A DNA stretch of 64,000 bases. Source: an uncultured Bacillota bacterium (GTDB taxonomy: Bacteria > Sysuimicrobiota > Sysuimicrobiia > Sysuimicrobiales > Segetimicrobiaceae). The notes beneath the pieces were generated by a model, which made no database searches, was not told where the DNA came from, and worked only from the letters and a program-made list of their open reading frames with translations. This document shows, one piece after another, positions 1,257 to 57,162 of this stretch (position 1 is its first letter; each line of letters opens with the position of its first letter). Position numbers and translations under genes: made by a program. Where the stretch lies: NCBI GenBank assembly GCA_963804645.1, contig CAWDRG010000017.1, positions 736,001 through 800,000 on the forward strand, in the 5' to 3' direction.

Positions 1257-2858
1257 TTACTTGAGCGACACCAGATCCAGCCGCCACAGCCCGGTGACGG
1301 GAAACTGCACGAACCCGTCGACGTTCGCGCGGGCCGCGCGCACGAGCTGCAGGTTGTTGACAAAGATCCACGGCGCGTCGTCGTGCGTGATCGCGTTGAT
1401 CTCCTTGTACATCTCGGCCCGGCGCGCCTGATCGGTGATGGAGCGCGCCTGCGCGAACAGCTGGCTCACCACCGGATTGTGGTACCGGCCGTAGTTCGAC
1501 CCGGCAAACGCGTGCGACGCCTCGTTGTAATCAAACCGCACGCTCAGCATGTTGTCGGGGTCGCCGTTGTCCCCCGACCCACCGAACAGCGCCATCCCCT
1601 GCCAGGGGGTGTGGCGGATCTTGTCCAGGTACGCGCCGAACTCGAACTGCTGAATCCGGACGGTGACGCCCACCTTCGCGAGGTACGGCTGCACGGCTTC
1701 CGCCAGCTTGTCGCCGCCCGCCGGATTGTACGACCGCGCGCTGGAATACGTGAGCAGGTCCGTCGTGAACCCGTTCGGGTAGCCCGCCTCGGCGAGCAGC
1801 TTCTTCGCCATGTCGGGATCGTACGGGTACGGCTTCACCGCCGGGTTGTACGCCCAGTACGGGGCGGACACGGCCTGGCTCGAGGTGGCCGCGCCGGCGT
1901 AGAGCCCCTTGTTGATCGCGTCCTTGTCCACCGCGTAGTTCATCGCCTTCCGAACCCGCACGTCGTTGAACGGCGCGGCGTCGACCGCCATCCCGACTCC
2001 GAGCGTCAGCAGCGCCGGTGCCCGCATCAGCTTCAAGGCCTTGTTCCCGCTGATCCGGTCGTAGTCCGAGGGGAGCACATCGAGCACGATCTGGACCTGA
2101 TTGCGCTCGAGCGCCAGCAACCGCGTCGTGCTCTCGGGGATGATCTGAAACACCACCCGATCCATCTTCGGGCGCCCGCGCCAGTACGTCGGGTTTGCCG
2201 CCAGGGTCACGTGGTCCGACGGCGCCATCTCGACAAACTTGAACGGACCGGTCCCGACCGGATGATTGGCCATATCGCAGCCGTACTGCTTGGTCACCGC
2301 CGGGCTCATGATGCCGGACGAGACCATCGCCAGGCTCGCGAGGAACCCCGCGTTCGGCACCGGCAGCGTGAACCGCACCGTCGACGCATCAACCGCCTCG
2401 ATCTTCGCGGCCGTCCCGGCCGCCACCGATCCGAATGTGAAACCGTCAAACGACGCCACGCCTTTCAACCCCGGCACGTAGCAGGGATTCTGCGGGTTAA
2501 CCGCGCGATCAAGGTCCGCGGCGACCGCCTGCGCGGTCACCGGCGTGCCGTCCTGGAACGTCACCCCGCTGCGCAGCTTGAACGTGTACGTCTTGCCGTC
2601 CGGCGAGATCGTCCAGCTCTCCGCGAGCCCGGGCGCCGGAACGGTCGACCCCAGCTTGTAGCTGACCGGCGAGTCGTAGATGGAAGATTCGATATACCAC
2701 GATTCGTTGTCCAGGTTCGTCTGCGGATCCAACCCGGTCGGGTCCCCCTGCAGCGCCACGACAAGGGTCTTCGGCGCCTGGGCGTCCGCCAGACTCCACA
2801 ACCCGGCGGCGAACACAACCATGAGCATGATAATCAGACCTCGATGGAACATGCGCAT
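1257..2858 (-). CDS. ABC transporter substrate-binding protein, family 5 (DppA/OppA-like)
   Basis: Signal peptide; PGLAESWTISPDGKTYTFKLRSGVTFQDG and PVGTGPFKF motifs. Confidence 0.93.
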   Translation of the reverse strand: MRMFHRGLIIMLMVVFAAGLWSLADAQAPKTLVVALQGDPTGLDPQTNLDNESWYIESSIYDSPVSYKLGSTVPAPGLAESWTISPDGKTYTFKLRSGVTFQDGTPVTAQAVAADLDRAVNPQNPCYVPGLKGVASFDGFTFGSVAAGTAAKIEAVDASTVRFTLPVPNAGFLASLAMVSSGIMSPAVTKQYGCDMANHPVGTGPFKFVEMAPSDHVTLAANPTYWRGRPKMDRVVFQIIPESTTRLLALERNQVQIVLDVLPSDYDRISGNKALKLMRAPALLTLGVGMAVDAAPFNDVRVRKAMNYAVDKDAINKGLYAGAATSSQAVSAPYWAYNPAVKPYPYDPDMAKKLLAEAGYPNGFTTDLLTYSSARSYNPAGGDKLAEAVQPYLAKVGVTVRIQQFEFGAYLDKIRHTPWQGMALFGGSGDNGDPDNMLSVRFDYNEASHAFAGSNYGRYHNPVVSQLFAQARSITDQARRAEMYKEINAITHDDAPWIFVNNLQLVRAARANVDGFVQFPVTGLWRLDLVSLK

Positions 2859-31797: not shown

Positions 31798-33270
31798 ATG
31801 GCCACACGACGGCGGCCCACCCCGACGAAGCCTCAGCGACGCTCCCGCCCGGCCGCGCCGAAACCGGCGGCGCGGCGCGTGCGGACGCGGCGGGCCCCCG
31901 CCGCAACGCCCGCAGGCGCGCACGCCACCCGGACGCTCGCGGAGTGGGTCGCATCCCGCCACGCGTTCCCGGACGCGACGATCGCGATGGCCCGCCGGTG
32001 CGTACTGGACTGGCTCGGCGCCGGCTTTGCCGGCACTGCCCTGCCGCCCGCGCGGATCGCGGCCCACCTCGCGAGGCAGCTTGGGGGACCGGCGGAATCG
32101 ACGATCCTCGCCGGCGGCCGCGCCGCGGTCACGGGAGCAGCGCTGGCCAACGGCGTCGCGTCGCACGCGGTCGAAATGGACGATCTGCACCGGCCGTCGG
32201 TCATGCATCTGGCCGTCGTCACGATACCCGCCGCGCTCGCCCTCGCCGAACGGGAGCACGCCCCTGGCCGGCGCCTGCTCGAGGCGATCGTCTGCGGGTA
32301 CGAGGTCGGCGCGCGGGTCGGCGAGGCGCTGGGGCAGCCGCACTACGATTTCTGGCACACCACCGGGACCGCGGGGACGTTCGGCGCCGCGGCGGCGTGT
32401 GCCAAGATCCTCGGGCTCTCGCCCGATGAGACGCTGCACGCGCTCGGCACGGCCGGCACCTTGTGCGCGGGCCTCTGGGAGTTCCTCGCCGACGGGGCGA
32501 TGAGTAAGACGCTGCACGCGGGACGCGCGGCGGAGACCGGCGTGTTGGCCGCGCTGCTCGCCCGCGACGGATTCACCGGCGCGTCGGCGATCCTCGAGGG
32601 GGACAAGGGCGTGCTGCGGGCGATGGCCGGCGGCGGCCAGCCCGCGCGCCTGGTCGAGGGCCTCGGGACGGCGTTTCGGATCGACGGCAACTCGTTCAAG
32701 CTGCACGCCGCGTGCGGGCACACGCACCCCGCCGTCGACGCGGCGCTCGAGCTCCGCCGCCGGGGGATCCGCGCGTCCGAGATCACCTCGATCCGCGTCG
32801 GCACGTTCCGGACCGCCCTCGAGGTCACGTCGATCCGCGACGCCCACAACCCGTACCAGGCAAAGTTCAGCCTCCCGTTCTGCGTCGCGCTGGCGCTGGT
32901 GCGCGGCCGTGTCGGACTGGGGGAGTTCACGCCGGCCGAGCTCGCCGACCCCGAGCTGCGCGCGGTGTCCGGCCGCGTCGTGCTCGCGGAAGACGGGGTG
33001 TCCAACCGGGCATATCCCGGACGGTGGCAGGCATCCGTGACCGTCGCGCTGACGGGCGGCCGGCGCGAGACCGTCCGCGTGGACGCGCCTCGGGGCAGCC
33101 CGGAGAATCCGGCATCCGACGAGGAACTGCGGGAGAAATTCGACGGACTGTGCGAGGGACGCATCCCGTCCGAGCGGCGCGACGCGATCGCCCGGGCCGT
33201 CGAACTGCTCGCCGACACGCGGGACGTCGCCGCGGTCGCGTGGGGCGCCGATGCGAACGGTCACCACTAG
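31798..33270 (+). CDS. MmgE/PrpD family protein
   Basis: AALANGVASHAVEMDDLH, HTTGT, KTLHAG, FKLHAACGHTH, AKFSLPF, RGSPENP. Confidence 0.9.
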   Translation: MATRRRPTPTKPQRRSRPAAPKPAARRVRTRRAPAATPAGAHATRTLAEWVASRHAFPDATIAMARRCVLDWLGAGFAGTALPPARIAAHLARQLGGPAESTILAGGRAAVTGAALANGVASHAVEMDDLHRPSVMHLAVVTIPAALALAEREHAPGRRLLEAIVCGYEVGARVGEALGQPHYDFWHTTGTAGTFGAAAACAKILGLSPDETLHALGTAGTLCAGLWEFLADGAMSKTLHAGRAAETGVLAALLARDGFTGASAILEGDKGVLRAMAGGGQPARLVEGLGTAFRIDGNSFKLHAACGHTHPAVDAALELRRRGIRASEITSIRVGTFRTALEVTSIRDAHNPYQAKFSLPFCVALALVRGRVGLGEFTPAELADPELRAVSGRVVLAEDGVSNRAYPGRWQASVTVALTGGRRETVRVDAPRGSPENPASDEELREKFDGLCEGRIPSERRDAIARAVELLADTRDVAAVAWGADANGHH

Positions 33271-34093
33271 CGACCTCACGGCCGCGGTCCGCGACCTGTG
33301 CATCACGGTGAATTACCGGATGGGCGACGACATGCTCCAGGCGCTCGCGCGCGCGAAAGAGGTGGAGGAGAGCGACCTCGGGCGCACCGTACTGACGCGC
33401 CTCCTCGAAAACGCGCGGGTCGCGCGGACCGACTGGTACCCGATCTGCCAGGACACCGGCCAGGCGGTGGTGTTTGTCGACCTCGGCCAGGACGTGCATG
33501 TCGAAGGCGGCGACCTGGACGCGGCGATCGACGAGGGAGTCCGGCAGGGATACCGCGAGGGGTACCTCCGGGCGTCGGTCGTGGAGAGCGCGCTGCACCG
33601 CGTCAACACGGGCGACAACACCCCGTCGATCATCTATACGCGCATCGTGCCCGGCGACTGCATCACGCTCGGCCTGCTGGCCAAAGGGGCGGGCTGCGAC
33701 AACATGAGCCGTCTCGCGATGTTGAAGCCGTCCGACGGGTACGAGGGTGCGGTCGAGTTCATCGTGCGTGCCGTCTCGGAAGCCGGCCCGAACCCAAGCC
33801 CGCCGCTCGTCGTCGGGGTGGGCCTCGGCGGCACCTTCGAGCGGGCGGCGCTGCTCAGCAAGCGGGCGTTGCTGCGGCGGGTGGGCGATCCCAGCCCGGA
33901 CGCTGCGCTCGCCGCGTTCGAGGCCGAGCTGCTGCGGCGGATCAACGAGTTGGGAATCGGCCCGGCCGGCTTTGGCGGGCGGGTGACGGCGCTCGCGGTG
34001 CACGTCGAGAGCCATGCGACGCACATCGCGAGCCTGCCGGTCGCGGTGAACCTGGATTGCCACTCCCACCGTGCGGGGCAGGTCGTGCTGTAG
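33251..34093 (+). CDS. Fe-S hydro-lyase (fumarate/tartrate dehydratase) alpha subunit
   Basis: PICQDTG, GYLRASVV, NTGDNTP, KGAGCDN, HIASLPVAVNLDCH. Confidence 0.92.
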   Translation: MRTVTTSDLTAAVRDLCITVNYRMGDDMLQALARAKEVEESDLGRTVLTRLLENARVARTDWYPICQDTGQAVVFVDLGQDVHVEGGDLDAAIDEGVRQGYREGYLRASVVESALHRVNTGDNTPSIIYTRIVPGDCITLGLLAKGAGCDNMSRLAMLKPSDGYEGAVEFIVRAVSEAGPNPSPPLVVGVGLGGTFERAALLSKRALLRRVGDPSPDAALAAFEAELLRRINELGIGPAGFGGRVTALAVHVESHATHIASLPVAVNLDCHSHRAGQVVL

Positions 34094-34178
34094 TGCGAAT
34101 GGGTCCGGGCACATCGGATCCGAGGCACACGCGCGGCGGCCGCGAACGCCGTACGGGTCGGCACCGGCGGGGCGGCTC

Positions 34179-34745
34179 GTGACTCGGTCGCTCGAGCTTA
34201 TCAGCCCGTTTAGCGTCGCGCAGGCCGAGGCGCTCCGTGCCGGGGATGAGGTGCTGTTGTCGGGGGTCGTCTACACGGCGCGCGACGCCGCGCACGAGCG
34301 ACTCGTGGAGATGCTCGGCGCCGGGCGAACACTCCCCGTGGATCTTCAAGATCAGGTCATCTACTATTGCGGTCCCACGCCGGCGCGACCGGGACGTCCG
34401 ATCGGCTCGGCCGGACCCACCACAGCCTCCCGGATGGACGCGTATGCACCGTACCTGCTCCGGGCGGCGAGGATCCGCGGCATGATCGGCAAGGGCAAGC
34501 GCTCCGAAGAGGTTCGCGCGGCTATCGTGGCGTGCCAGGCCGTGTATTTCGGCGCGATAGAGGGCACGGCCGCGCTGTTGGGCGAACGCGTCAAAGAAGC
34601 CGCGGTGGTGGCCTTTCCAGATCTCGGTCCCGAGGCGATCTACCGGCTGGTGGTCACCCGCTTCCCGGTGATCGTGGTCAACGATATATACGGGCGTGAC
34701 GTCTACGAGGAAGGTCGCGCGCGGTATCAACGATCGTCAACGTAG
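34179..34745 (+). CDS. Fe-S hydro-lyase (fumarate/tartrate dehydratase) beta subunit
   Basis: YTARDAAH, GSAGPTTASRMD, MIGKG, DLGPEA. Confidence 0.92.
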   Translation: MTRSLELISPFSVAQAEALRAGDEVLLSGVVYTARDAAHERLVEMLGAGRTLPVDLQDQVIYYCGPTPARPGRPIGSAGPTTASRMDAYAPYLLRAARIRGMIGKGKRSEEVRAAIVACQAVYFGAIEGTAALLGERVKEAAVVAFPDLGPEAIYRLVVTRFPVIVVNDIYGRDVYEEGRARYQRSST

Positions 34746-34969: not shown

Positions 34970-36268
34970 TTACTGCCGTACCTGGGTGCGCAGCACCTCG
35001 AGCGCCCGTGATAGGTAGGGCGCCGCTTGAGACGGACGCCTGCACTTGAGCAGGAGGTCGCCGAGCGCATTGGATGCGCGGGCGAGGTCCGCGCGCATGT
35101 GAAGGGCTTCAAACGAGCCGATGGCCACCTTGTACCAGCGAATCGCCTCTGAAGTCTGCCCGCTGGCGTCCCGAAGGCCCGCACGAGCCAGCTCTATCCT
35201 GGCGAGCTCGGTCACGTCCCCGAACCGTTTGGCAAGCCGCTCCGCCTCGTCCAGCGCCTCGTCCGCCTGGTTGAATATGCCTTTAAGAGTCAGCGCACGC
35301 CCCAACTCGGTCAACGTGCGGGCGCGTCCGGGATCGTCGCCGATCTGTTCCTTAATCCGAAGGCTCGCCTCAATATGCTCAATCGCGCCGTCCACCTTCC
35401 CCGCGGCGAGCAGCGTGATTCCGATGCTGTTGTGAGCCCATCCGAGGAACCGCGTATCGTTCAGCGCTTCGAAGAGGTGTTGGGCCCTCGTCAGGTGCTC
35501 AAGCGCCGCGTCGAAGTCACCGCGCTCACGCCGGGCGACGCCCAGTTGGACGTGGACGAGTCCCACGCGATGGAGATCCTCTGCGGACTCCAGCAGGGGC
35601 AGGGCTTGTTGATACCAATGGATTGCGTCCGCATAATCCCCGAGCTCCAGATACGTGTTTCCCAGATTGTACAGCAGCGCCCCGCCGAGGCTGCGGTCGG
35701 GATGGTCGCACAACTGGAAGCGGCGATAGCCTTCGGCGAAGTGTTCGCGTGCCTTCGAGAGATCACGTTTGTAATATTCGATCAGCCCGAGAACGTGATG
35801 CACGCGCACGAGGTGGCGTTCGGTCCCCAGGGCTTCCGCGATCTCCCTGCCGAGTTCGACGTTGTGGCGGGCGAGATCGTATTGTCGCAGACCGGCCAGT
35901 GCGTAGGCCAAGCCGACATAACACTCCGCCTGACTGGCCTTATCCTGCTGCCCGATCGCCAAGGTGAGCGCTTCATTGAACGCCTCGGCGGCTCCGGTGT
36001 AATCGCCCGGCTTCGCCTTGGCCCAGGCCGCCGCAACGTTGACCTGCAACACCTTCGCACTCAACGTCGCGTCGTCATCCAAAATGTACGCGGGCGACAC
36101 CTGCAGGCGCCGCGCGATGAGGACCAAGGTCGCAGGTGACGGCCTGGCGCGCCCAGCTTCGAGTAAACTGACGAATCCTTTGGTCAGATCGCTACCGCCG
36201 AGCTCGGTCTGCGTGAGACCGAGCTCTTTCCGTCTTGCCCGAATGCGTTCACCCAGTGAAGACACCAC
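34970..36268 (-). CDS. XRE-HTH + TPR transcriptional regulator (RRNPP-like architecture), paralog 1
   Basis: LGERIRARRKELGLTQTELGG..FVSLLEAGRARPS HTH followed by multiple TPR repeats (LLYNLGNTY, WAHNSIG); GGGGGA RBS. Confidence 0.88.
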   Translation of the reverse strand: MVSSLGERIRARRKELGLTQTELGGSDLTKGFVSLLEAGRARPSPATLVLIARRLQVSPAYILDDDATLSAKVLQVNVAAAWAKAKPGDYTGAAEAFNEALTLAIGQQDKASQAECYVGLAYALAGLRQYDLARHNVELGREIAEALGTERHLVRVHHVLGLIEYYKRDLSKAREHFAEGYRRFQLCDHPDRSLGGALLYNLGNTYLELGDYADAIHWYQQALPLLESAEDLHRVGLVHVQLGVARRERGDFDAALEHLTRAQHLFEALNDTRFLGWAHNSIGITLLAAGKVDGAIEHIEASLRIKEQIGDDPGRARTLTELGRALTLKGIFNQADEALDEAERLAKRFGDVTELARIELARAGLRDASGQTSEAIRWYKVAIGSFEALHMRADLARASNALGDLLLKCRRPSQAAPYLSRALEVLRTQVRQ

Positions 36269-36496
36269 AGGTCCCCCGATGCGAAACCTACGAGACGCCG
36301 ATGCGCCTCTCGGCGATCCCTTGCCCTGCTTTTTGCAAAGTTTAGTGTATCACCTAGTCTAGATTCCTGCTACTAGAACAGCTCAAGCCATCTCAAGCCA
36401 ACCCGAGCCCGTCGACGCAATGGAACCCCTGCAAGGACCCAGATCGAGCCCTTGCCTCCGATGAGACCCGGATTCAGTTAGAAGCTTCGCGGCTCG

Positions 36497-37009
36497 CTAA
36501 GCGCCGCCGTTGTCGTCGCCCGCGGGAACCAGCGGCGGCATGCCGTAGACGCTGCTCCCGCCGTTGTCGTCGCCTGCGGGAACCAGCGGCGGCACGCCGT
36601 AGACGCTGCTCCCGCCGTTGTCGTCGCCCGCGGGAACCAGCGGCGGCACGCCGTAGATGCTGCTCCCGCCGTTGTCGTCGCCCGCGGGAACCAGCGGCGG
36701 CACGCCGTAGATGCTGCTCCCGCCGTTGTCGTCGCCCGCAGGAACCAGCGGCGGCACGCCGTAGACGCTGCTCCCGCCGTTGTCGTCGCCCGCAGGAACC
36801 AGCGGCGGCACGCCGTAGACGCTGCTCCCGCCGTTGTCGTCGCCCGCAGGAACCAGCGGCGGCACGCCGTAGACGCTGCTCCCGCCGTTGTCGTCGCCCG
36901 CAGGAACCAACTGTGCGGCGCCCGCCGGAAGACTTGCTGCAAACAGATGAACACCAGACGTGCTGAGAACAAGCGCCCCTACCGCGACAAACATCCATAT
37001 GCGACGCAT
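36497..37009 (-). CDS. Secreted tandem-repeat peptide precursor (signal peptide + 8x LVPAGDDNGG)
   Basis: AGGGGGTG RBS before ATG 37009; MRRIWMFVAVGALVLSTSGVHLFA signal-like N-terminus; 18-aa repeats LVPAGDDNGGSS[V/I]YG[V/M]PP. Confidence 0.82.
   Translation of the reverse strand: MRRIWMFVAVGALVLSTSGVHLFAASLPAGAAQLVPAGDDNGGSSVYGVPPLVPAGDDNGGSSVYGVPPLVPAGDDNGGSSVYGVPPLVPAGDDNGGSSIYGVPPLVPAGDDNGGSSIYGVPPLVPAGDDNGGSSVYGVPPLVPAGDDNGGSSVYGMPPLVPAGDDNGGA
36503..36910. repeat. 54-bp tandem repeat, 7 full units + 30-bp partial unit
   Basis: Unit containing GCCGTAGA[C/T]GCTGCTCCCGCCGTTGTCGTCGCC recurs every 54 bp with no spacers. Confidence 0.97.
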
Positions 37010-37279
37010 AGTACTACACCCCCTATTTTGATTTCTCGAGCACTCGAGTACCAAGCCAGGAAACTTCATGCGAGATCTGATTTCGCGGACTCGAAGCTTT
37101 CACGGACACAAATCTTGATCGCGCCCCACACGAGAAATGGCGTGCTATGGCGCCAAGGTTGCAGTCAATACGTGGCGTACGGTATCGAACAACCGAACGC
37201 CATATGTCCTTATGTACCTATGTACCTCCCTCGCCGAAATTAGACGTCCCCCGTCTAACTAACTGCCCACTGCCCCAGG

Positions 37280-37524
37280 GACTTAGCCGACGCCCGAGGA
37301 GAAGGGCTGCCGTGTGGCTGAAGTTTTATCAACTGCGCCGCACCTTCGCACGTCAACTAATGGAGGTCGGGCCCCCCCATCGCCACCGTACAGCGCCTCT
37401 TTGGCCATGGCAACCTGCAGAGCATCTAGTGGTATCGGTCCCTGCCAGAGCAATCATCCGCCGCAGCTACGATACGGCGGTAACGCGGTTGCTGGGCACG
37501 ACGACCACGGACCCTGACGCGTGA
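37280..37524 (+). pseudogene. Decayed tyrosine recombinase (XerC/D/integrase) C-terminal remnant
   Basis: With a frameshift in the C7 run near 37375 it reads RRRAAVWLKFYQLRRTFARQLMEVG.PIATVQRLFGHGNLQSI*WY...IRRSYDTA, matching box II (HxLRHxFA..LLGH..TxxY). Confidence 0.7.
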
Positions 37525-38064
37525 GCGCAGTCGCCGTACACCGACCCGCGAGGCCAGGCGACGCGCCAAACACCAATCGGGTAAGCGTGCTACGCGTAGC
37601 GCTGGCCGAGGACTGATATTTAGTTGACAAACGTCAAGAATTGGTGCCGTCTGCGCGCCCTGCACAAAAAGAGACTTAGAAACGGTCCGGCTTGGCCAAC
37701 AGCCCCCCATTGCAGAAAGTTGAGTAGAGCGGTAGACTTGTGAAACAGGTAAACTTGTGGGGGGGAGCCCGCAACTCGTCCTGTAACCTCTGCGGCATTA
37801 GTACGGCCACTAGCGACTTGAAGTGACTAAATCATCGGCAAGGGGGGGACACGGAGGGCACTCAAAACTTCATATCGGGCGGGATCCGAGCGGTACCGGG
37901 CTCGGCGGCATTCCAAGCCGCAACGCCTTTCGCGGACGCCGACGTGCAGTCGACGCGGGAGGCCGAAGACGATGGCTGACGTCCATAACCGTAGCACTGC
38001 CCGACTCAGATCTAGCGCGCACAAACCAACGTAGCCGAGGACACGGTCAGCGGCGCTTACACTG

Positions 38065-39438
38065 GTGAACGGCAAGTGCGCATGTGCCAAGCAATCGCGG
38101 ACTGCCGGGATGCGTGTAGTAACATGGCAGGCGACGGCGGCAATAGTGATAGGAAGCTATCAACTACCGCTCGGATTCCCGCTCGCCCATGACCAGATGC
38201 GAGTACATTTTCGTGAGCTTCAGGATTCTTTGCAGGCGTTCTGCGTTGTCCTCTGCGCGTTCGCGCTGGCGGCGTCATTTTTGCCCTGCCTCACAGTCAC
38301 CCGCTGATTGTCATCGGACTGGCGGTTATCTTCGCCGCCACATGCCTCGTTAGACCGATACCGAATCCCTCTGGCGGGAGCATTTTTCCGACCAACAGCG
38401 TGAAAATCGTGGCCGCGCTCCTCTGGATGCCGCAGGACGTACTGATCGGTGTCGCATGTGGGGTCGTTTCTTGGGTTGCTCCTCTTCCAAGGAGCGAGAT
38501 CTGGCGAGCGGCGAGTCAATGGTGCTGGATGGGGACTGGCCTCTGCGTCAGCGGCGCTCACGGCCCACCTCGTGCAGGGCGCGATCGAGCCCAGGCCTGG
38601 TGCAATTGACCGCGGCAGCCGTTGCGGCGGTGGTAACGAATCGCGTCATCAACGAAGGGATTTTCTCGATCTACAGATCCTTGCGATTTGGCTTTCCTAT
38701 TTCTGCCGACTTGGCGCCAAAACGTGCTCGACCAGTGGATGAGTCAGCTTCTTGCCGCGCCGATGGGGATCGTACTGGCGGCAGCGGCCGGTCGACTCGC
38801 AGCCACGTGGTCCTCCCTGGCGCTAACGGCCGTGTCCGCGCTGGCGTTACCTGATTCCACGCCAGGAGCTGGCCTATTACCATCGTGCCCAGGAAGCCGT
38901 GGCCGAAGTCGTCGAGGCGGTCGTCCGCGCACTGGAAGGGATCGATCAGAATACGCGGGCGCACGGTGACCGGGTCAGCCAGCTCGCGGGGGCGGTCGGA
39001 CAGCGTCTGCGGATGCCGGAGGCGGACCTCCGGGCCCTTCGCTTGGCGGCGCGTCTGCACGACGTCGGCTTCCTGGCGGGACCCGACGGGTCGGCGCCCA
39101 ACGACCACCACGCGGTCGCCGGCAGCCGGATCCTCGCCCAGTCGCCGGATCCGCTGATCGCAAGAATCGTACGGGCTCATCACGAACGGTGGGACGGCAC
39201 CGGAGTCCCGGACCGAACCGCCGGGCAGGCGATCCCTCTCGGTGCACGGGTCATCGCAGCAGTGGAAATCTACGATGAGGTCTGCTTCGGGATCGGCGAG
39301 GGCGGCAGCACCATGCCGCCCACCGACGCGCTCGGGCGCGTCCGCGGACTGGCCGGCACCGCGCTCGATCCGCAGGTCGTCAGCGCGCTCATCAGCGTCG
39401 TCGAGGAACAGGAACTCCAGGCCGCGGTGACGCGGTGA
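38065..39438 (+). pseudogene. Membrane-anchored HD-GYP-type protein broken by multiple frameshifts (HD domain intact at 38899-39438)
   Basis: Hydrophobic segments continue across successive frames into IPRQELAYYHRAQEAVAEVVE..HGDRV..LHDVG..HHERWDGTGVP; 5' boundary uncertain. Confidence 0.65.
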
Positions 39439-42041
39439 GCTTGAACGGGGCCGGGATGCGCGCGTCAGCCTCCGCGCTCCCGTTGTTCGTTTGGTTCCTC
39501 GTCGCGGCCGCACTCGGCTCCCTCATCGCGGGGCTGCGCGCGATGGTGGTCGGGCAGATCCCTGAAACACTCGTGATCGCGATTACCATCGCGATCCTCG
39601 ATCTGTATCCGATCTACCTCGATCCCACGGGTGAAATCCCGCTGACCCCCGTCATCACCGTGGGGGCGGTGGTGCTGTTTGGGTGGGCGCCGACGATCGT
39701 CGGCGCCGCTGTCGGCACGCTCTTCGGGCTGTTCAGGCACCCCGCGCGGGAGGTCGTGGTCAACGGCAGCATCCGGCTCGGCGCGCTCATCGCTGCCGCC
39801 GGTCTCGCCAGCGTCGCGCCCGCGATGGGTTCGAACCGCGATGTGAGCGCGGTGATCGCGGTGCTCTATGCCGGCGCCGGGTACTGGGCGGCGTCTGTGT
39901 TCCTGTCCGCGGCCCGCCTGTGTACCGAAGACGCGGTCACGTGGCAGCGTGCCGTCAGATTCCAGCTGGCGGCCACGACGTTCCACCTGGCCGTGTTCAC
40001 CCTCGCGGCCGCCGTCGCGGTGTGGGTGATCAGCAACGATCCGTCGCGGATCGACCTCCTGCTCGTCCCTCCGCTCGCCGCCACGTTGGTGCTCCAGCTC
40101 TACCTGCCTCGAATTCTGCGCGGCGAACAACAGCGCCGCGCGCTCTCCTCGGTGTCGGTGCTCGCGGCCGCGGTCGACGCCAAAGACCCGTATACTGCCA
40201 ACCACTCGGCCGCGGTGGCCGAACTGTCCCGGCGCGTCGCGAGAGTGCTCGACCTCGACGAGCCCGACGTGCACCGCGTCTACCTCACCGGGCTGCTCCA
40301 CGACGTCGGCAAGACCGTCGTGCCGCCGGAGATTCTCCTGAAAACCGGAAAGCTGACGGAGGACGAATGGCAGGTAATGCGCTCGCACGTCGAGGCCGGC
40401 GTTCGGATCGTCCAGTCGATTGGCGGGCTGGCGGAGATCGCCCCATTCGTCGGGGCCAGCCACGAGCGCCTCGACGGGGCCGGCTACCCGGCGGGCCTGG
40501 CCGGCAACGCCATTCCCCTGAGCTCCCGCATCAATCTCGTGGTCGACGCGTACAACGCGCTGACGACGAACCGCCCCTACCGCCCGGCCCGTCCGCCTGA
40601 GGCGGCGCTCCGCGAGCTCGAAGCGCACACGGGAACGCAGTTCGACCCGCGGGTGGTCACGGCGATCCGCACCGCCCTCGGATTGAGCCGGGCGCTTCCT
40701 CCGCAGCGCGACGCGCCGGATCCGCGGGTGGTCGCGACGCTTCGTACCGCGCTCGGGCTCAAGCGCGCCCCCGAAACGCGCGAGGACGCACCAAACGCGT
40801 TGACGTTGTTCCGGCAGCCGGCATTCGCGCTCCTGTGGATCGGGCAACTCGTGAGCTTCCTCGGCGATGAAGTTTTCTTCATCGCCCTATCGCTCTGGGT
40901 CTACCGGCTCACCGGATCCGCGACGATCCTCGCGGTCGCGCTGATCGCCGCGACCGTGGGCCAAGGCCTGCTGGGACTGCTGGCCGGCGCGCTCGCGGAC
41001 CGGATGGACCGTCGCGGAGTCATGATCGCCGCTGACCTCGGGCGGGCGGTCCTCGTGGGCATGCTCCCCTTTGTCATTCTCCGGTCGCTGCCCCTAGGAT
41101 TCCTCGTCCTCGTGGTGTTGAGTGTCGGCACCGTGTTCTTTCGCGCCGCGGTCTACGGGTTGATCCCGTCGATCGTCACGCGAGCGCTCCTCCCGTCTGG
41201 CAATGCGCTGTTGCAGACGACCGAGCGCGTCGCCGAGATCGTCGGCGGGGTGTTGGGGGGGGTGATTGTGCTCACGCTCGGCTACGTCGCGGTGTTCTAT
41301 CTGGACGCCCTGAGCTTTCTCGTGAGCGCGGTGTGCATCGGCCTGATGCCGGTGGCATGGCGGGCGGGTCTCGCCGCGACCGGCCCCAAACACATCGCCA
41401 CGGACATTAAAGAAGGCCTCGACTACATCCGACACACGCCGCTGCACTGGGCGCTGGCACTCTTGATTATCCCAGGGTACCTCACGCTCGCGTTTACCGG
41501 TCTCAGAGCGCCGATGATCATCAAGGCGGCGGCGCTGCCGGCGGTCGCCTACGGCGTCGTCAACAGTGTGATCGGGGTCGGCAAGCTTGTGTCCGCGCTG
41601 TCGCTGGCCGCGATCCCGCGCGGCTGGAGCAACGTGTCGTTCGTGGTCGGATCGTTCCTCCTGACGGCGCTCGGGATCCTGCTGTTCGGCGCCACCACGT
41701 CGTACTCGGTGCTCCTCATGGGGGCGTTCCTGTTCGGCGCCGGAAATATCGCCTCGAACATCGCCAACGCGTCCATTTCCCTGTCCAACACGCCGTCCGG
41801 GATCGTGGGCCGACTGATGTCCAGCCGACAGGTCTTCATCGCCGGCACCACGCTGGTCGGCATGTTGATCTTCGGCAGGCTGGCCGACGTCGCCGGCCCG
41901 CCGTTCGCGCTCGTGATGCTGGGAGCCGTCTCGGCCGGGGGCGTGCTGATCGTGTGGTTCACCATCGGCCGCCGGGTCGCTCCGCCAACCTCTCAGGACG
42001 TGCCTCGCAGCGTCACCGTGCCGTCCCAGCGCAACGCATAG
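39435..42041 (+). CDS. Fusion: N-terminal multi-TM domain + HD-GYP phosphodiesterase + MFS transporter
   Basis: DAKDPYTANHS..LLHDVGK..HERLDGAGYP..GTQFDP; then FALLWIGQLVSFLGD..AGALADRMDRRGVMIAADLGR (MFS motif A) and further TM helices. Confidence 0.88.
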   Translation: MSLNGAGMRASASALPLFVWFLVAAALGSLIAGLRAMVVGQIPETLVIAITIAILDLYPIYLDPTGEIPLTPVITVGAVVLFGWAPTIVGAAVGTLFGLFRHPAREVVVNGSIRLGALIAAAGLASVAPAMGSNRDVSAVIAVLYAGAGYWAASVFLSAARLCTEDAVTWQRAVRFQLAATTFHLAVFTLAAAVAVWVISNDPSRIDLLLVPPLAATLVLQLYLPRILRGEQQRRALSSVSVLAAAVDAKDPYTANHSAAVAELSRRVARVLDLDEPDVHRVYLTGLLHDVGKTVVPPEILLKTGKLTEDEWQVMRSHVEAGVRIVQSIGGLAEIAPFVGASHERLDGAGYPAGLAGNAIPLSSRINLVVDAYNALTTNRPYRPARPPEAALRELEAHTGTQFDPRVVTAIRTALGLSRALPPQRDAPDPRVVATLRTALGLKRAPETREDAPNALTLFRQPAFALLWIGQLVSFLGDEVFFIALSLWVYRLTGSATILAVALIAATVGQGLLGLLAGALADRMDRRGVMIAADLGRAVLVGMLPFVILRSLPLGFLVLVVLSVGTVFFRAAVYGLIPSIVTRALLPSGNALLQTTERVAEIVGGVLGGVIVLTLGYVAVFYLDALSFLVSAVCIGLMPVAWRAGLAATGPKHIATDIKEGLDYIRHTPLHWALALLIIPGYLTLAFTGLRAPMIIKAAALPAVAYGVVNSVIGVGKLVSALSLAAIPRGWSNVSFVVGSFLLTALGILLFGATTSYSVLLMGAFLFGAGNIASNIANASISLSNTPSGIVGRLMSSRQVFIAGTTLVGMLIFGRLADVAGPPFALVMLGAVSAGGVLIVWFTIGRRVAPPTSQDVPRSVTVPSQRNA

Positions 42042-42237
42042 GGCCGCCGGGCGCGGAGTCGGCCGGCCCTGGCGTACGCGCCGCCTGCCTCAGAGGTCTA
42101 GAACCCCACCCCCCAGTGTACACACGGGATGGCCGGCACCAGCGCGCGCCGGCTCAGTTTAGGCACGTCGGAGCAGTGCACGGACCTGCCGGACGCCATA
42201 CGCAGCAGCCGCCACACCAGGATGGGGGAGACGTCAC

Positions 42238-43998
42238 ATGAGATCCGATCGAACGCTCGCCTGCATGCTCGTCGTCCTGCTCATTGTCCTCGTCGCGGGC
42301 GCCGCGGCCAGCGGGGCCGGAGCGCCCGTGAACAATCCGGGCACGTTCGTCACCGAGCGCCTGGCGGATCCGCAGAGCCTCGATCCCGCCTACGCGTACG
42401 ATACCGCGAGCGAAGAGATCATCTACCCCAACGTCTACGAGACCCTGATCGGGTACGACGGCAGCGTCCTGTCCCACTATGTGCCGGTGCTGGCTGCCCA
42501 AGTGCCGAGCGTGGGCAATCACCTGATCACGCCGGACGGGCTCACGTACACGTTCCCGATCCGCGCCGGGGTGCGGTTTCACGACGGGTCCGTGATGACT
42601 CCCGAGGACGTGCGCTATTCGATCTTGCGCTTCATGCTGCAGGACCGCGACGGCGGCCCGTCGTGGCTGCTGCTCACGCCCCTGCTCGGGACCGAGAGCA
42701 CGCGCGACGCCAAGGGCAACATCGCCGTGACGTACGCGCAGGCCGCCAAGGCCGTAACGGTCGAGGGGCACAACGTGGTCTTCCACCTCGCCCATCCGTA
42801 CGGCGCGTTTCTGAGCATCATGGCGGCGTGGTCGTTTGTCCTCCCGCGCGCGTGGGCCGCGGCGCACGGTGACTGGGACGGCAGCCCGGCGACGTGGCAG
42901 CGCTACAACAACCCGAAGCTCCAGGACCGCTACGCGTTCGACCATATGAACGGCACCGGGCCGTTCCTGCTGCAGCAGTGGGACCGGCAGGCCAAGCAGA
43001 TCATTCTGGTCCGGAACCCGCAGTACTGGCGCGCGCCGGCCCGGTTGTCGCAGGTCGTGATCCGCACCGTCCCCGAGTTTGGGACGCGCCGCCTCGAGCT
43101 CCAGCGCGGCGACGCCGACCTCATCGACGTCCTGCGCCCGGATCAGCCCCAGGTGGCGGGACTGGACGGCGTGACGATCCGTGACGGCCTTCCGCAGCTG
43201 GCGCTGCTGGCCCTCGACTTCAACCTGCAGATCGACCCCACCGCCAATCCCGATATCGGCAGCGGGAAGCTTGATGGGAACGGGATCCCGCCGGACTTCT
43301 TCAGCGACGTCCACGTCCGCCAGGCGTTCGCGTACGCGTTCGACTACGGGACGTTCATCCGGGACGGATACCGGGGGGACGCGGTCCAGCCGAACGGCCC
43401 CATCATCCAGGGCCTGCTCGGATACGATGCGTCGATGCCGCGGTACACGTTCGACCGGCAGAAGGCGATCGCGGAGTTCAAGGAGGCGTGGGGCGGGAAG
43501 CTGTGGGACGTAGGGTTCCGCTTCACCGAAACGTACAACACCGGCAATGTGATCCGTCAGGTCGCCGCGCAGATCCTCAAGGACGAGGTCGAGTCGCTCA
43601 ACCCGAAGTTCCGGATCGACATCCGCGATCTCGCTTGGTCGTCGTTCCTCCAGATGGTCGGCCAGCATCGGGGCACGCTGTACGGCATGGCCTGGACGGT
43701 CGACTATCCCGATCCCGACGACTTCGCACAGCCGTTCATGGCGAGCAACGGTTCCTACCCGAAGCGGGACGGCTTCAGCGATCCCGCCGCGGACCAGCTG
43801 GTCGCGGAGGCGGCGGCCATGTCCGATCCCGCCAAGCGCGCGGCGATCTACCAGCAGCTGTCCAAGCTCTCGTACACCGACGCGCCCAGCATCTACATCG
43901 CGCAGCCGACCGGGTTCGCGGTGATGCGGACGTGGGTCCGCGGATGGTACTACAACCCGGTGATCGTGCAGGACTACGGCCCGCTGTTCAAGCAGTAG
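42238..43998 (+). CDS. ABC transporter substrate-binding protein, family 5 (peptide-binding)
   Basis: Signal peptide; SLDPAYAYDTAS, YTFPIRAGVRFHDG, NGTGPF, WTVDYPDPDDF. Confidence 0.92.
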   Translation: MRSDRTLACMLVVLLIVLVAGAAASGAGAPVNNPGTFVTERLADPQSLDPAYAYDTASEEIIYPNVYETLIGYDGSVLSHYVPVLAAQVPSVGNHLITPDGLTYTFPIRAGVRFHDGSVMTPEDVRYSILRFMLQDRDGGPSWLLLTPLLGTESTRDAKGNIAVTYAQAAKAVTVEGHNVVFHLAHPYGAFLSIMAAWSFVLPRAWAAAHGDWDGSPATWQRYNNPKLQDRYAFDHMNGTGPFLLQQWDRQAKQIILVRNPQYWRAPARLSQVVIRTVPEFGTRRLELQRGDADLIDVLRPDQPQVAGLDGVTIRDGLPQLALLALDFNLQIDPTANPDIGSGKLDGNGIPPDFFSDVHVRQAFAYAFDYGTFIRDGYRGDAVQPNGPIIQGLLGYDASMPRYTFDRQKAIAEFKEAWGGKLWDVGFRFTETYNTGNVIRQVAAQILKDEVESLNPKFRIDIRDLAWSSFLQMVGQHRGTLYGMAWTVDYPDPDDFAQPFMASNGSYPKRDGFSDPAADQLVAEAAAMSDPAKRAAIYQQLSKLSYTDAPSIYIAQPTGFAVMRTWVRGWYYNPVIVQDYGPLFKQ

Positions 43999-44022
43999 GC
44001 CGCGATCGGGCTCGCGCGGGCG

Positions 44023-44051
44023 GAGGCCCCCGGGAACCTCGGGGGCCTTTC
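44023..44051. terminator. Hairpin terminator between convergent genes
   Basis: AGGCCCCCG-GGAACCT-CGGGGGCCT followed by TT. Confidence 0.7.
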
Positions 44052-44055
44052 CGTG

Positions 44056-45351
44056 CTAGCGGGGCGAGTCGGCGCGCAGCACCTCAAGCGCCCGCGAGAG
44101 ATACGGCGCGGCCTGCGACGCGCGGCCGTGTTTCAGGAGTAGATCGCCGAGCGCGTTGCACGCGTTCGCGACGTCCGCCTGCATCCCAAGCGCGGTGAAT
44201 CCGTCGATCGCCTGCTTGTAGCAGCGAATCGCCTCCGGCATCCGGCCGGTCGCCGCCCGGAGCTGGGCGCGGGCGGCCTGAATGCGGGCGCCCTCGGTGA
44301 CATCCTTGAACCGGTCGGTCAGCCGCTCGGCCTCGTCAAGCAGCGCATCCGCCGAGGCGAACTCGCCTTTTGCGATCATGGCGCGTCCCAATTCTGTGAG
44401 CGACCGTGCCCGCCCGGGGTCGTCGCCGGTCTCCGCCTTGATCCGGAGACTCGCCTCGATGTGCGCGATCGCGTCGTCGACCTTCCCCTCAGCCAAGAGC
44501 GTGATCCCGATGCTGTTGTGGGCCCATCCGAGCAGCCGCCGGTCTTCGAGCACCTCGAACACGTGCTCCGCCCGGTTCAGATGCGCCAGCGCCGCGTCGT
44601 AGTGCCCTCGCTCGCGCTCGGCCACTCCGAGCTGGACGTGCACCAGACCGAGCCGGTGCATGTCCCCGGTCGACTCCAGCAGGGCCATCGCCCGCTCGTA
44701 CCAGCGGGCGGCCTCCACGTGGTCGCCCATCTCCATGTGCGTGTTGCCGATGTTGTACAGTAGAATGCCGCCGAACCCGCGATCCGGGTGATCGAACTCT
44801 TCGAACCGGCGGTACGCCTCGGCAAAATGCCCGCGCGCCTCAAGCAGGCGGCGCTCCTGGTACGCGATCATGCCGAGCACGTGGTGGATGCGCACGAGGT
44901 GATGCGAGGCCCCGGCCGTCTCGGCAAGGTCCCGCCCGCGCTCCACGTTCCGACGGGCCAAGTCATGCTGCCGGAGACCCGCGAGCGCCGTCGCGAGCCC
45001 GATGCAGCATTCGGCCTCGAGGGCTGGATCGTCGTCCCCCGCGGCCAGCGCGAGCGCCTCGTTGAACGCCTCGGCGGCGCCGGTATAATCGCCCTGCTTG
45101 ACCTTGACCCAGCCCGCGGCCACGGTGACGCGAACCGCTTTGGCCCCGAGGGTCGTGCCTCGCTCCAGAAAATAGCCGACGGGCCTCTGCAGGCGGCCGG
45201 CGAGCACGCCCAGGGTGTCCAGCGACGGCTTCGCGCGGCCTTTTTCGATCAGGCTGATGAACGCTTTGCTGACGTCAGCGCCGCCGAGTTGGGTCTGAGT
45301 CAGGCCCAACTCCTTCCGTCGGGTCCGAATGCGTTCCCCCAAGGAAGACAA
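44056..45351 (-). CDS. XRE-HTH + TPR transcriptional regulator (RRNPP-like architecture), paralog 2
   Basis: Colinear with and clearly similar to 34970..36268 (SSLGERIR.RRKELGLTQ, GWAHNSIGITLLA, GDDPGRAR.LTELGRA, QAAPYLSRALEVLR); TTG start at 45351 with GGGGGA RBS. Confidence 0.88.
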   Translation of the reverse strand: MSSLGERIRTRRKELGLTQTQLGGADVSKAFISLIEKGRAKPSLDTLGVLAGRLQRPVGYFLERGTTLGAKAVRVTVAAGWVKVKQGDYTGAAEAFNEALALAAGDDDPALEAECCIGLATALAGLRQHDLARRNVERGRDLAETAGASHHLVRIHHVLGMIAYQERRLLEARGHFAEAYRRFEEFDHPDRGFGGILLYNIGNTHMEMGDHVEAARWYERAMALLESTGDMHRLGLVHVQLGVAERERGHYDAALAHLNRAEHVFEVLEDRRLLGWAHNSIGITLLAEGKVDDAIAHIEASLRIKAETGDDPGRARSLTELGRAMIAKGEFASADALLDEAERLTDRFKDVTEGARIQAARAQLRAATGRMPEAIRCYKQAIDGFTALGMQADVANACNALGDLLLKHGRASQAAPYLSRALEVLRADSPR

Positions 45352-45521
45352 CGTCGATCCCCCGGTCTCGCGTCGGTGCGCGCCCATCCACTACCGCGAA
45401 GCGCTCGGTACGGCTGGTATCTGATACTGGATCCCGGGTCTCGAACCCTTGTGCATTCGCAGCACCCGGCCAGCCCGGGGGCCGGCCGGCAGTCGGATCG
45501 GGATCGGGGCGGCGAGGCCGG

Positions 45522-55560: not shown

Positions 55561-57162
55561 ATGGCCAAGCACACGCGCACGCAGGCGGGACGGACGACGC
55601 GGCGGGGGTTTCTCACAACGGTCGCGGCCGCCGGCATCGGCGCGGCGTCATCCGCGTGGCTCGCTACGGCAGGCCCCGCGGGGGCGCTCGCGGCAGCTCC
55701 GATGCGCCGAGGCGGCACGCTCAAGATCGCCGAGATCGGTGAGCCGTTGACGCTCGACATCCCGTCCACCACGGCGGGGCTCACGACCAATCTCACCCTG
55801 CCGGTGTTCGAAGAGCTGTTCGCGTTCGACGCCAGCTGGCGGATCCAGCCGTCGCTGGCGGCCGGGTACAGCGTCAGCAAGGACGGGATGACGTATACGT
55901 TTACCCTGCGCAGCAACGTCCCGTTCCACAACGGCAAGATCATGACCGCGGACGACGTGGTCGCGTCCCTGAACCGCTGGGGCAAGGTCAGCCCGTACGG
56001 GGCGGTCCCGTACAAGTCGGTCGAGTCGGTGACCGCCGCCGGCAACACGGTGGTCATGAAACTCACCGCGCCGTCCGCGCCGCTGCTCGCGTTTCTGACG
56101 TTTCCCGTGGGGGCCGCCGCGATCATGCCGAAGGAAGTCATCGATGCGGCCGGGACGGGACCCCTCAAGCAGTTCATCGGGACGGGACCCTATAAGTTCG
56201 TGGAATGGGCGCCGGACCGATACGTCCACCACACTCGGTTCGATCAATATGCGGCGCGCTCGGAACCCGGGAACGGCATGGCGGGCCGGAAGGATGCCCT
56301 GGCGGACGACCTCTTCTACTACCCCGTCTCGCAGGTCGCGACCCGGCTCGCGGGCGTCCAGAGCGGCGACTACGACATCGCGGATCAGATCAATACCGAC
56401 GCGTACGCCCAGCTGAAGCAGGATCCGCGGGTCCAACCGGGCGTCGTGCCCGGCACGTTCCTCACGTTCTTCTTCAATAAACGCCAAGGCGTGATGACGA
56501 ATGAGAAGCTGCGCCAGGCCGTCGCCGTGGCCATGGACATGCAGCCAATTATGGAAGCGACGTTCGGCAACCCCGACCTCTTCACGATCGACTCGAGCAT
56601 CTACCCCAAGGGCACGCCGTGGTATACGAACGCGGGCGGCACCTGGTACAACGTCCACAACACGGACCAGGCGAAACAGCTGGCCAAGGAGGCCGGGTAC
56701 TCGGGACAGCCGATCCGGTGGCTGTCGACGCAGGAGTACGACTACATGTTCAAGAGCACGGTCGTCGCCTCGACACAGCTCAAGGAGGCCGGCTTCAACG
56801 TGGACCTGCAGGTCGTGGAGTGGGCAACGCTGCTCGACCGCCGCGCCAAGGCGGACGAGTGGGACATGTTCGTGACGTCGCACTCGTTCGTCCCCGACCC
56901 GTCCCTGATCACCGTGTTCAGCTCCGCGTACCCCGGATGGTGGGACACCCAGACGAAAAACGCGCTGTTCGCGCAGTTCAACGCGGAGTCGGATCCGAAG
57001 AAGCGCATCCAGCTGTGGGCCAAGCTGCAGACGTTGATGTACCAGGAGGAGCCGATCGTGCGGCCCGGCGGATTCAGCGCCCTGCTGCTGAGCCGTAGGG
57101 GGCTGCCCGGGTTTCAGCCGTCGGCCTGGATCGTGCCGTGGAACGTGCAGGCGGTCAAATAG
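55561..57162 (+). CDS. Tat-exported ABC substrate-binding protein, family 5
   Basis: TRRGFL twin-arginine signal; YTFTLRSNVPFHNG, IGTGPYKF. Confidence 0.92.
   Translation: MAKHTRTQAGRTTRRGFLTTVAAAGIGAASSAWLATAGPAGALAAAPMRRGGTLKIAEIGEPLTLDIPSTTAGLTTNLTLPVFEELFAFDASWRIQPSLAAGYSVSKDGMTYTFTLRSNVPFHNGKIMTADDVVASLNRWGKVSPYGAVPYKSVESVTAAGNTVVMKLTAPSAPLLAFLTFPVGAAAIMPKEVIDAAGTGPLKQFIGTGPYKFVEWAPDRYVHHTRFDQYAARSEPGNGMAGRKDALADDLFYYPVSQVATRLAGVQSGDYDIADQINTDAYAQLKQDPRVQPGVVPGTFLTFFFNKRQGVMTNEKLRQAVAVAMDMQPIMEATFGNPDLFTIDSSIYPKGTPWYTNAGGTWYNVHNTDQAKQLAKEAGYSGQPIRWLSTQEYDYMFKSTVVASTQLKEAGFNVDLQVVEWATLLDRRAKADEWDMFVTSHSFVPDPSLITVFSSAYPGWWDTQTKNALFAQFNAESDPKKRIQLWAKLQTLMYQEEPIVRPGGFSALLLSRRGLPGFQPSAWIVPWNVQAVK

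Follow-up and report, generated by a model that had tools for sequence, protein, structure and literature searches.

A candidate RRNPP-like peptide-signalling cassette with a multi-copy precursor in an uncultured bacterium encoding LpxC and Omp85

Gene content of the locus

The DNA analysed here (the window) is a stretch of 64,000 nucleotides, about 70% G+C overall, from contig CAWDRG010000017.1 (positions 736,001 to 800,000) of an uncultured bacterium, and this study concerns two genes on its minus strand that make up a candidate RRNPP-like peptide-signalling cassette. The first, R1 (34970-36268), encodes a candidate cytoplasmic receptor of 432 aa with an XRE-type helix-turn-helix (HTH) and nine tetratricopeptide repeats (TPRs), and begins with a GTG behind GGGGGA. 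The second, the propeptide gene (36497-37009), lies upstream of R1 in the same orientation and encodes 170 aa counted from an ATG at 37009, which stands behind GGGGGTG and is its likely start; the mechanically called open reading frame (ORF) extends to 37069, a less likely start. A paralogue of R1, termed R2 (443 aa; 44056-45387, minus strand), lies further along the window.

A preliminary description of this DNA had proposed a block bounded by two paralogous XRE-HTH and TPR genes, and R1 and R2 bear this out. R1 matched the Pfam models HTH_3 (2.4e-10), TPR_12 (4.9e-31) and other TPR models, R2 likewise has HTH_3 (1.2e-8) and TPR, and the two proteins are 67% identical across 426 residues. The N-terminus of R1 is the HTH and not a signal sequence. 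In the nearest relative (locus L009, CAWBBU010000005.1) the orthologues of R1 and R2 are each 91% identical to those of the window and stand in the same gene order; the R1 orthologue likewise has a peptide gene upstream, and the R2 orthologue has none. The region upstream of R2 itself contains no peptide gene, a point that tells against the integrated island considered below. In the receptor tree, a quick IQ-TREE reconstruction of 56 rows from which L030 was omitted (<400 aa), R1 and R2 are sisters within the clade of their genus (Shimodaira-Hasegawa-like approximate likelihood ratio test, SH-aLRT, 98). The peptide-R1 cassette with its spacer coincides with a lower-GC patch of the window (0.58-0.65, about 34.5-38.5 kb), and the G+C content at third codon positions is 0.75 in R1 (0.73 in L009) versus 0.86-0.91 in R2 and the flanking genes, which is odd given that R1 is sister to R2.

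The precursor consists of a hydrophobic N-terminus (MRRIWMFVAVGALVLSTSGV...), seven full units of 18 residues and a truncated eighth at the end. The unit reads LVPAGDDNGGSS[VI]YG[VM]PP in all seven copies, with LVPAGDDNGG as core and SSVYGVPP as spacer, and the precursor ends in LVPAGDDNGGA-stop. The secreted eight-copy precursor reported earlier was thus recovered as seven full units and one truncated unit; its N-terminus resembles a Sec-type signal peptide, and secretion is predicted from hydrophobicity only. No Pfam or NCBIfam family matched the propeptide. At the DNA level the units form a tandem array of 54 nt on the minus strand (36504-36909), to which Tandem Repeats Finder assigned 7.5 copies with 98% matches. 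Variation among the seven full units is confined to five nucleotide columns. Three of them lie in the core and are exclusively synonymous, two lie in the spacer and give the conservative replacements V/I and V/M, and the peptide frame is under selection. The array of L009 comprises 12.5 copies of the same 54-nt unit and retains the C-terminal ...GDDNGGA-stop. Homologous ORFs were found upstream of the receptor orthologues in six further genomes (G001-G006), and copy number shifts fast, from 7.5 in the window and 12.5 in the nearest relative to 1-5 elsewhere.

Such an array might also be a non-coding satellite or an assembly artefact that happens to lie beside an ordinary TPR regulator. It is open in all three frames, the L009 copy has frame breaks in its assembly, and short-read contigs break within the array. 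However, the hydrophobic N-terminus occurs in one frame only, the stop of that frame is conserved, the core varies as described above, and homologous peptides encoded by different DNA are present in many genomes, some of them as a single copy without any repeat. Together with the strand control reported below, these observations make an accidental origin extremely improbable.

Structure of the receptor

An AlphaFold2 model of R1 built from 61 aligned sequences (mean predicted local distance difference test score, pLDDT, 92.3) shows 5 N-terminal helices and 18 repeat helices, and as modelled the protein is an HTH plus nine TPRs. Structural comparison by VIA placed the model nearest to peptide-bound Rap proteins, namely RapJ with peptide (4gyo; Z 32.5, root mean square deviation (rmsd) 4.2, 348 aligned), phi3T Rap with pheromone (8rsv; Z 32.4) and RapF-PhrF (Z 31.5), followed by RapI (Z 30.5), the eukaryotic TPR protein LGN (Z 29.8), apo NprR (5dbk; Z 29.1, rmsd 5.9, 352 aligned of a 355-residue chain), NprR-NprX (4gpk; Z 27.5) and AimR (Z about 24). 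Foldseek ranked LGN first, then Rap and PlcR. The likeness to RRNPP receptors that had been suspected was therefore supported by VIA, with Rap and NprR among the nearest structures, and failed to appear at the head of the Foldseek ranking. The predicted fold of R1 can be assigned to the non-degenerate 9-TPR class of the Rap/NprR type, by a small margin over a generic TPR protein. In a structural phylogeny of these receptors, the part of the source available places QssR, NprR and Rap, with non-degenerate 9-TPR folds, in clan B (10.1101/2023.09.19.558401).

A profile search of PDB sequences with R1 returned generic TPRs, and Rap at 2.4e-13; no NCBIfam model passed its cut-off for R1, and several R1 homologues carry the JGI annotation 'quorum sensing regulator NprR'. 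Co-folding of R1 residues 64-432 (with alignment) and the last 33 residues of the precursor gave 0.01 against a mark of 0.32 and was weighed neither way. Phage carriage of the receptor was considered and dropped, since a scan of viral contigs by means of the receptor alignment found 20 loci whose matches are confined to the HTH part (query residues <=129), with no full-length relative among them.

Distribution and diversification in the phylum

The genome of the window (G000) belongs to a phylum in which a genome search recovered 94 species genomes in a single order with seven families. The available part of a study of CSP1-3 counts 113 species, all within one order of a single class and divided among seven families, with 62-74% GC, 2.1-4.8 Mb and a topsoil family as the largest (PMC11962464). 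In the nearest ESM-Atlas cluster most labels read Candidatus Sysuimicrobiota, the phylum being known for 27 of its 215 members, and the host phylum is probably CSP1-3/Sysuimicrobiota. To our knowledge, the group has no cultured representative. A high-GC Firmicute as host (Limnochordia, Symbiobacteriia) was set aside because all 94 species recovered for the phylum fall into one order. No Spo0A_C was detected in the host genome (96.8% complete), and LpxC (285 bits) and Omp85 (110 bits) are both encoded on the window's own contig, where they point to a lipid A-bearing outer membrane in the host lineage, as judged from gene content. The impression that this is no ordinary Firmicute was hence correct. 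The LpxC gene and the Omp85-family gene lie 4 kb apart (contig C17, contig coordinates 506836-511900).

At a threshold of E 1e-25 or better, a receptor match was found in 75 of the 94 species genomes, including two unpublished ones (G034 and G078, both matching); without those two the tally is 73 of 92. By family, matches were present in 22/22 (f1), 21/22 (f2), 29/34 (f5), 1/1 (f6) and 1/1 (f7) genomes, and in 0/12 (f4) and 0/1 (f3). The 700-1100 nt upstream of 76 receptor genes were then inspected, and a small ORF in the receptor's orientation, with a hydrophobic N-terminal stretch and a short Gly/Asp(/His)-rich motif, was present at 52 of them, absent from 22 and unassessable at 2. In the window, as at all 52 positive loci, the peptide gene precedes the receptor gene in the same orientation; 25 of the 52 have multi-copy precursors (range 1 to 12.5 copies over all 52). 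Neighbouring genes for small peptides predicted to be secreted, whose lack had been named as grounds for giving up the proposal, are widespread. In a strand control at 74 loci, a signal-like ORF with motif was found on the same strand at 46 and on the opposite strand at 3, which also argues against a chance arrangement.

The receptors fall into three clades (SH-aLRT 100 each), each with its own motif class: GDDxG in clade A, GHG[GD]GELL-like in clade B and FDGQDGSGQ in clade C. Clade A (family f1, 46-100% identical to R2) comprises 27 receptors, 14 with a peptide of the GDDxG type (6 multi-copy), 12 with none and 1 unassessable. A group at 32-38% (f2, f5, f6 and f7) comprises 38 receptors, 35 with a peptide (mostly AGHG[GD]GELL, with the variants AGDGNIEVI, AGRGDMDSFG and AGHPDADFFG; 16 multi-copy), 2 with none and 1 unassessable; the tree places 16 of its 18 included members in clade B, with L035 and L066 outside, and 20 further loci are not in the tree. 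Clade C (f1, 28-36%) comprises 10 receptors, 3 with a peptide (PLVPFDGQDGSGQ), all multi-copy, 7 with none and 0 unassessable, and the remaining gene is a distant receptor copy in the window genome (L003), without a peptide. By these data the pairing is conserved, and receptor and propeptide co-diversify across the phylum, the motif being specific to the receptor clade.

Single-copy precursors, counted with their signal sequence, are 38-70 aa long. In those of clade A and of part of clade B, the motif forms the last 9-12 residues (...VLVPAGDDPGGH-stop; ...LVPAGDDPGGH-stop; ...KIAGHGGGELL-stop), some clade-B precursors have 8-11 extra residues beyond it, and in multi-copy precursors most units are internal. 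At two clade-C loci (L074 and L075, in G012 and G016), a co-oriented gene for a secreted protein of 146-156 aa, cupredoxin-like by eye only, stands upstream in place of the small peptide gene.

Among the receptors without a peptide gene, eight of clade A (L048-L054, L057) adjoin a divergent tRNA-Thr(GGT) in 8/8 cases, and most of their contigs end just past it; in the tree they correspond to two starred groups (6 and 2 rows) in its unresolved part. Frame translation suggests a putative start of tuf beyond the tRNA gene. The idea that these contigs end in unassembled peptide repeats was dropped, since the ends follow the divergent tRNA-Thr in the orphan subclade at all eight.

The same distribution has to be read against a different possibility, in which the HTH-TPR protein senses something else and switches the expression of a peptide that is not its ligand but an end product, for example a metal- or calcium-binding, antimicrobial or adhesive peptide or a multi-core precursor of a ribosomally synthesised and post-translationally modified peptide (RiPP). 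Kept adjacency would be no less expected of a regulator and the gene it controls, the Gly/Asp-rich motifs (GDDNGG, GHGDGELL, DGQDGSGQ) resemble the composition of metal-binding loops, multi-core precursors are typical of some RiPP classes, and 22 of the 76 receptors have no neighbouring peptide gene. Yet the pair has no conserved modifying enzyme, protease or dedicated exporter next to it, its neighbours vary by genus, and single-copy precursors with their signal sequence appear too short for a structural product. The joint change of receptor clade and motif is more directly predicted by a relation of ligand and receptor, and the modelled receptor fold belongs to the peptide-binding Rap/NprR class. 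Overall we consider an end product unlikely, while giving it more weight than any other alternative raised in this study.

Neighbouring genes and history of the locus

Three plus-strand genes that we regard as neighbours outside the system separate the cassette from R2. The first (38197-39438) encodes a membrane and HD-GYP-like protein (HD_5 2.3e-20), the second (39435-42041) an 868-aa fusion of membrane part, HD-GYP and a C-terminal major facilitator superfamily (MFS) transporter (HD_5 4.6e-37, MFS_3 2.2e-21), and the third (42238-43998) a family-5 solute-binding protein (SBP5; SBP_bac_5 8.6e-65) without adjoining permease genes. The block is flanked upstream by fumarase subunits (33251-34745, plus strand) and beyond R2 by a TRAM-domain protein gene followed by pyruvate:ferredoxin oxidoreductase (POR) subunits.

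The MFS fusion and the family-5 protein agree with the preliminary description, and the mutual divergence that it gave to the HD-GYP genes does not: both lie in tandem on the plus strand and diverge from the peptide-R1 unit. The 868-aa protein keeps the HD dyad and the GYP signature (...HDVGK..., ...HERLDGAGYP...) and is a predicted phosphodiesterase, and the joining of a cyclic di-GMP (c-di-GMP) phosphodiesterase domain to a transporter, as predicted here, would be unusual. The first gene reads GVP in place of GYP and, compared with the intact counterpart in L009, shows five frame changes within 38197-38979 (72-95% identity per segment), leaving only the last 179 codons in an open frame. Since short-read contigs of peat strains 95-99% similar show indels in 38197-38979, such as a base omitted at 38854 in two runs, the five frame switches are read as probable assembly errors, with a pseudogene as the alternative.

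In three members of the same genus (G001, G002 and G006) the backbone runs helicase, CoA-transferase, (PrpD), fumarase, HD-GYP, HD-GYP-MFS, POR beta and POR alpha, and R1, the peptide gene, SBP5, R2 and the TRAM gene are all absent from the site. Full-length HD-GYP-MFS homologues occur in the other six genomes of the genus, in five of them at receptor-free loci (67-70%), and an HD-GYP-MFS match was found in 60 of 61 relatives, including 12/12 genomes of family f4 although the receptor is present in 0/12 there. The pair of HD-GYP and HD-GYP-MFS genes is conserved in genus and family, with full-length matches 46-70% identical; in G012, G014 and G019 all three parts seem to be fused, to judge by open frames of about 1245 aa, and in other families the HD-GYP-part and MFS-part matches lie 2-3 kb apart on the same contig. 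The L009 locus has no SBP5 match, and R2 abuts the HD-GYP-MFS gene there. The 5.3-Mb window genome holds 133 SBP_bac_5 matches, or roughly one every 40 kb, which makes this an extremely expanded set of peptide/nickel-type binding proteins; three of the matches lie in the window (1533-2639, 42484-43755 and 55843-56901), so that an SBP5 gene next door is expected by chance.

These comparisons bear on the proposal that export, re-import, reception and c-di-GMP output are encoded together as one island, in which the MFS half would export the peptide, the family-5 protein re-import it, R1 and R2 receive it and the HD-GYP proteins alter c-di-GMP. Adjacency in the window and, SBP5 excepted, in L009 speaks for it, as do the divergence of the HD-GYP pair from the peptide-R1 unit across a 1.19-kb spacer, the retained HD and GYP signatures of the second protein and the position of receptor paralogues on both sides of the pair in two genomes. 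Against this, the backbone of G001, G002 and G006 stands without R1, peptide, SBP5 and R2 and the cassette occurs elsewhere without an HD-GYP gene, the near-universal HD-GYP-MFS gene extends to the receptor-free family f4, and SBP5 is missing from the L009 site in a setting where such genes abound. Moreover, a precursor with a Sec-type N-terminus needs no MFS, and the first HD-GYP gene is the one with GVP and a frameshifted assembly. As a conserved system the island is largely refuted, and we rate an integrated island as decidedly improbable. Of the synteny that had been sought between receptor, precursor and HD-GYP genes, only the first two elements keep company (52 of 76 loci), the HD-GYP pair being receptor-free in the three genomes named; comparison across loci thus leaves the receptor-propeptide pairing as the one association that survives.

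The sequence comparison gives the following history of the locus. In G001, G002, G003 and G006 the peptide-receptor pair has a thioesterase gene on one side and a row of phosphoesterase, Amidase_3 and deacetylase genes on the other; the window genome has this amidase locus, but the pair is absent from it. The cassette is thus mobile as a unit, residing at the amidase locus in relatives and at the fumarase/POR site here. In the ancestor of the window genome and G004 it moved and duplicated, coming to lie on either side of the resident HD-GYP pair, with SBP5 gained later or lost in G004; the HD-GYP/HD-GYP-MFS pair is resident backbone and the larger 'island' an accident of insertion. At the locus that is usual for the genus (L041, 8318-12037; L042, 8300-12005) a phosphoesterase-family gene follows the receptor gene by 1-19 bp, and after it come an AMIN and Amidase_3 cell-wall amidase and a YibQ-type deacetylase, possibly a co-transcribed output there.

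Spacers and expression

The 228 bp that separate the propeptide stop from the start of R1 (36269-36496) contain no inverted repeats of at least 12 nt, and a related peat strain shows a 10-nt deletion at 36383. The spacer between the propeptide gene and the first HD-GYP gene (37010-38196, 1.19 kb, GC 0.58-0.64) is presumed to be the promoter region of both divergent genes. It aligns with L009 with indels, and its substitutions (19/15/15) have no codon periodicity. Within it, the block 37845-38140 is 88-94% identical to L009, and gave no Rfam match at E <=0.1, a fold z-score of 0.31 and no codon periodicity; a structured RNA or small gene at this position was accordingly dropped, and the block is read as ordinary non-coding DNA between close relatives. 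Promoter and terminator scans remained at chance level, and the only 12-nt palindrome across three spacers (38071-38088) is not conserved in L009.

Of 14 clade-A loci inspected, 10 (L039-L043, L045, L047, L030, L055 and L056) have a conserved block, GCCGTTCGGC (flanks AATAC ... TAC), roughly 30-55 nt ahead of the start codon of the peptide gene. The block is absent from the window, L009, L044 and L046, and may act as a promoter, a leader or an operator.

Two RNA libraries from one peat study yielded contigs that show 0-3 differences from R1, and an 84-nt contig matches the array with 7 differences. This read comparison used Logan contigs, which carry no information on starts, strands or expression level and whose gaps in cover are not read as absence, and the matches are a weak hint of transcription, DNA carry-over being possible.

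Proposed function of the cassette

The explanation we favour, and hold to be probable though well short of certain, is that R1 makes up an RRNPP-like peptide-signalling cassette together with its upstream gene. The 170-residue precursor would be exported by Sec, and extracellular or periplasmic proteases would release up to eight copies of one short peptide, acidic and with (L)VPAGDDNGG as its invariant core. This peptide would accumulate with cell density and could be taken up by one of many oligopeptide-type ATP-binding cassette importers, for which the 133 SBP_bac_5 matches indicate import capacity only. Inside the cell it would bind the concave face of the nine TPRs of R1 and switch DNA binding by the XRE-type HTH. 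The tandem copies most likely raise the signal yield per transcript. R2 is a recent duplicate without a peptide gene of its own, whether through loss or from the outset, and for that reason probably responds to the peptide of R1 or to some variant thereof. The resident HD-GYP pair could conceivably be a local target of the cassettes.

Several points weigh against this explanation. The hydrophobicity filter alone did not discriminate between strands (67 versus 61 of 74 loci), and hence the counts rest on the filter plus motif and ORF reading; the motif pattern was composed after the peptides had been seen, and it missed six ORFs counted by eye. The 22 receptor genes without a detectable peptide gene include R2 and the tRNA-Thr-linked subclade. 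LGN (Z 29.8; top in Foldseek) scores nearly level with the RRNPP receptors, so that likeness of fold proves neither common descent nor peptide sensing, and sequence profiles (Pfam, NCBIfam and PDB sequences) gave generic TPR/HTH families only. The palindrome and promoter scans of the spacers identified no operator or regulated gene. With LpxC and Omp85 encoded, a released peptide would have to cross an outer membrane twice. Export, processing, binding and regulation are each proposed from sequence and modelled structure.

Comparison with known systems

RRNPP(A) systems are regarded as a trait of Bacillota and of their mobile elements. Precursors with several identical signals separated by short spacers are familiar from yeast alpha-factor and from neuropeptides, where one round of translation frees several signals; the alpha-factor type is eukaryotic and relies on Kex2-type cleavage at dibasic sites and a membrane receptor, whereas the window precursor has no dibasic sites. 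Rap proteins lack an HTH and act through protein-protein contact or as phosphatases, whereas R1 has an HTH. The tandem propeptides of some Rap-Phr systems resemble the window precursor in holding several putative pheromone copies, and such multi-copy precursors need cuts on both sides of the peptide; in the available part of the source they are described for the phi3T and phi105 Rap systems, two phage systems in which multi-copy propeptides were studied experimentally (PMC11343458). Multi-copy propeptides are already known in Bacillota, but the copy number here is far higher (8 in the window, 12.5 in L009), with near-identical units and a regular period of 18 residues.

NprR-NprX of the Bacillus cereus group resembles the cassette in its receptor, an XRE-type HTH with nine canonical TPRs in about 430 residues, and in the adjacent gene for a Sec-type propeptide. 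In contrast, identity between NprR and R1 is about 13% in the structural alignment and no specific family model was reached, the window peptides are acidic and Gly-rich, and the host, with its genes for LpxC and Omp85, does not belong to Bacillota. The peptide gene also lies upstream and co-oriented here, whereas the available text of an mBio survey puts it immediately downstream in Bacillales systems (PMC9765709). PlcR-PapR shares with the window an HTH-TPR transcription factor and a secreted peptide with a C-terminal active part, the position that the same text gives for classical pheromones (PMC9765709); PlcR itself, however, has 5 TPRs and belongs to clan A according to the part of the structural phylogeny available (10.1101/2023.09.19.558401), and its Foldseek match to R1 was weak (query-normalised template modelling score, TM, 0.37). 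RRNPPA 'eavesdropper' receptors without a peptide gene are described in that part of the mBio survey as well (PMC9765709), and orphans such as R2 and the tRNA-Thr-linked subclade similarly coexist with receptor-peptide pairs in the window lineage.

The same portion of the mBio survey reports RRNPPA genes in Firmicutes genera only, all but one of them Bacilli (PMC9765709). RRNPP_detector, the largest screen, covered complete Firmicutes and virus genomes and propeptides of 10-100 aa, as far as the available part of the article describes it (PMC10075063), and with this limit would miss a 170-aa precursor. Our literature search, which covered the main texts of a limited collection of papers, found no work that ties RRNPP to this phylum or to diderm lineages, and the word 'quorum' was not found in the main text of either of two CSP1-3 papers.

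Conclusions

The observations of the preliminary description are partly confirmed and its interpretation is partly supported. As a candidate for RRNPP-like signalling the receptor-propeptide pair is real and well supported, and its host is an unexpected one. Whether RRNPP-type signalling is native and old in a non-Bacillota phylum with outer-membrane genes, with at least three specificity classes and repeated amplification to about 12 copies, is a proposition for which we judge the case evenly balanced. If true, RRNPP-type signalling would not be a Gram-positive speciality and the known range of peptide quorum sensing would be wider; it would also have to operate across an outer membrane, or as a circuit from periplasm to cytoplasm. 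The natural series from 1 to 12.5 copies could be used to study the effect of tandem pheromone amplification, and the cassette offers concrete synthetic peptides and receptors for an uncultured soil group.

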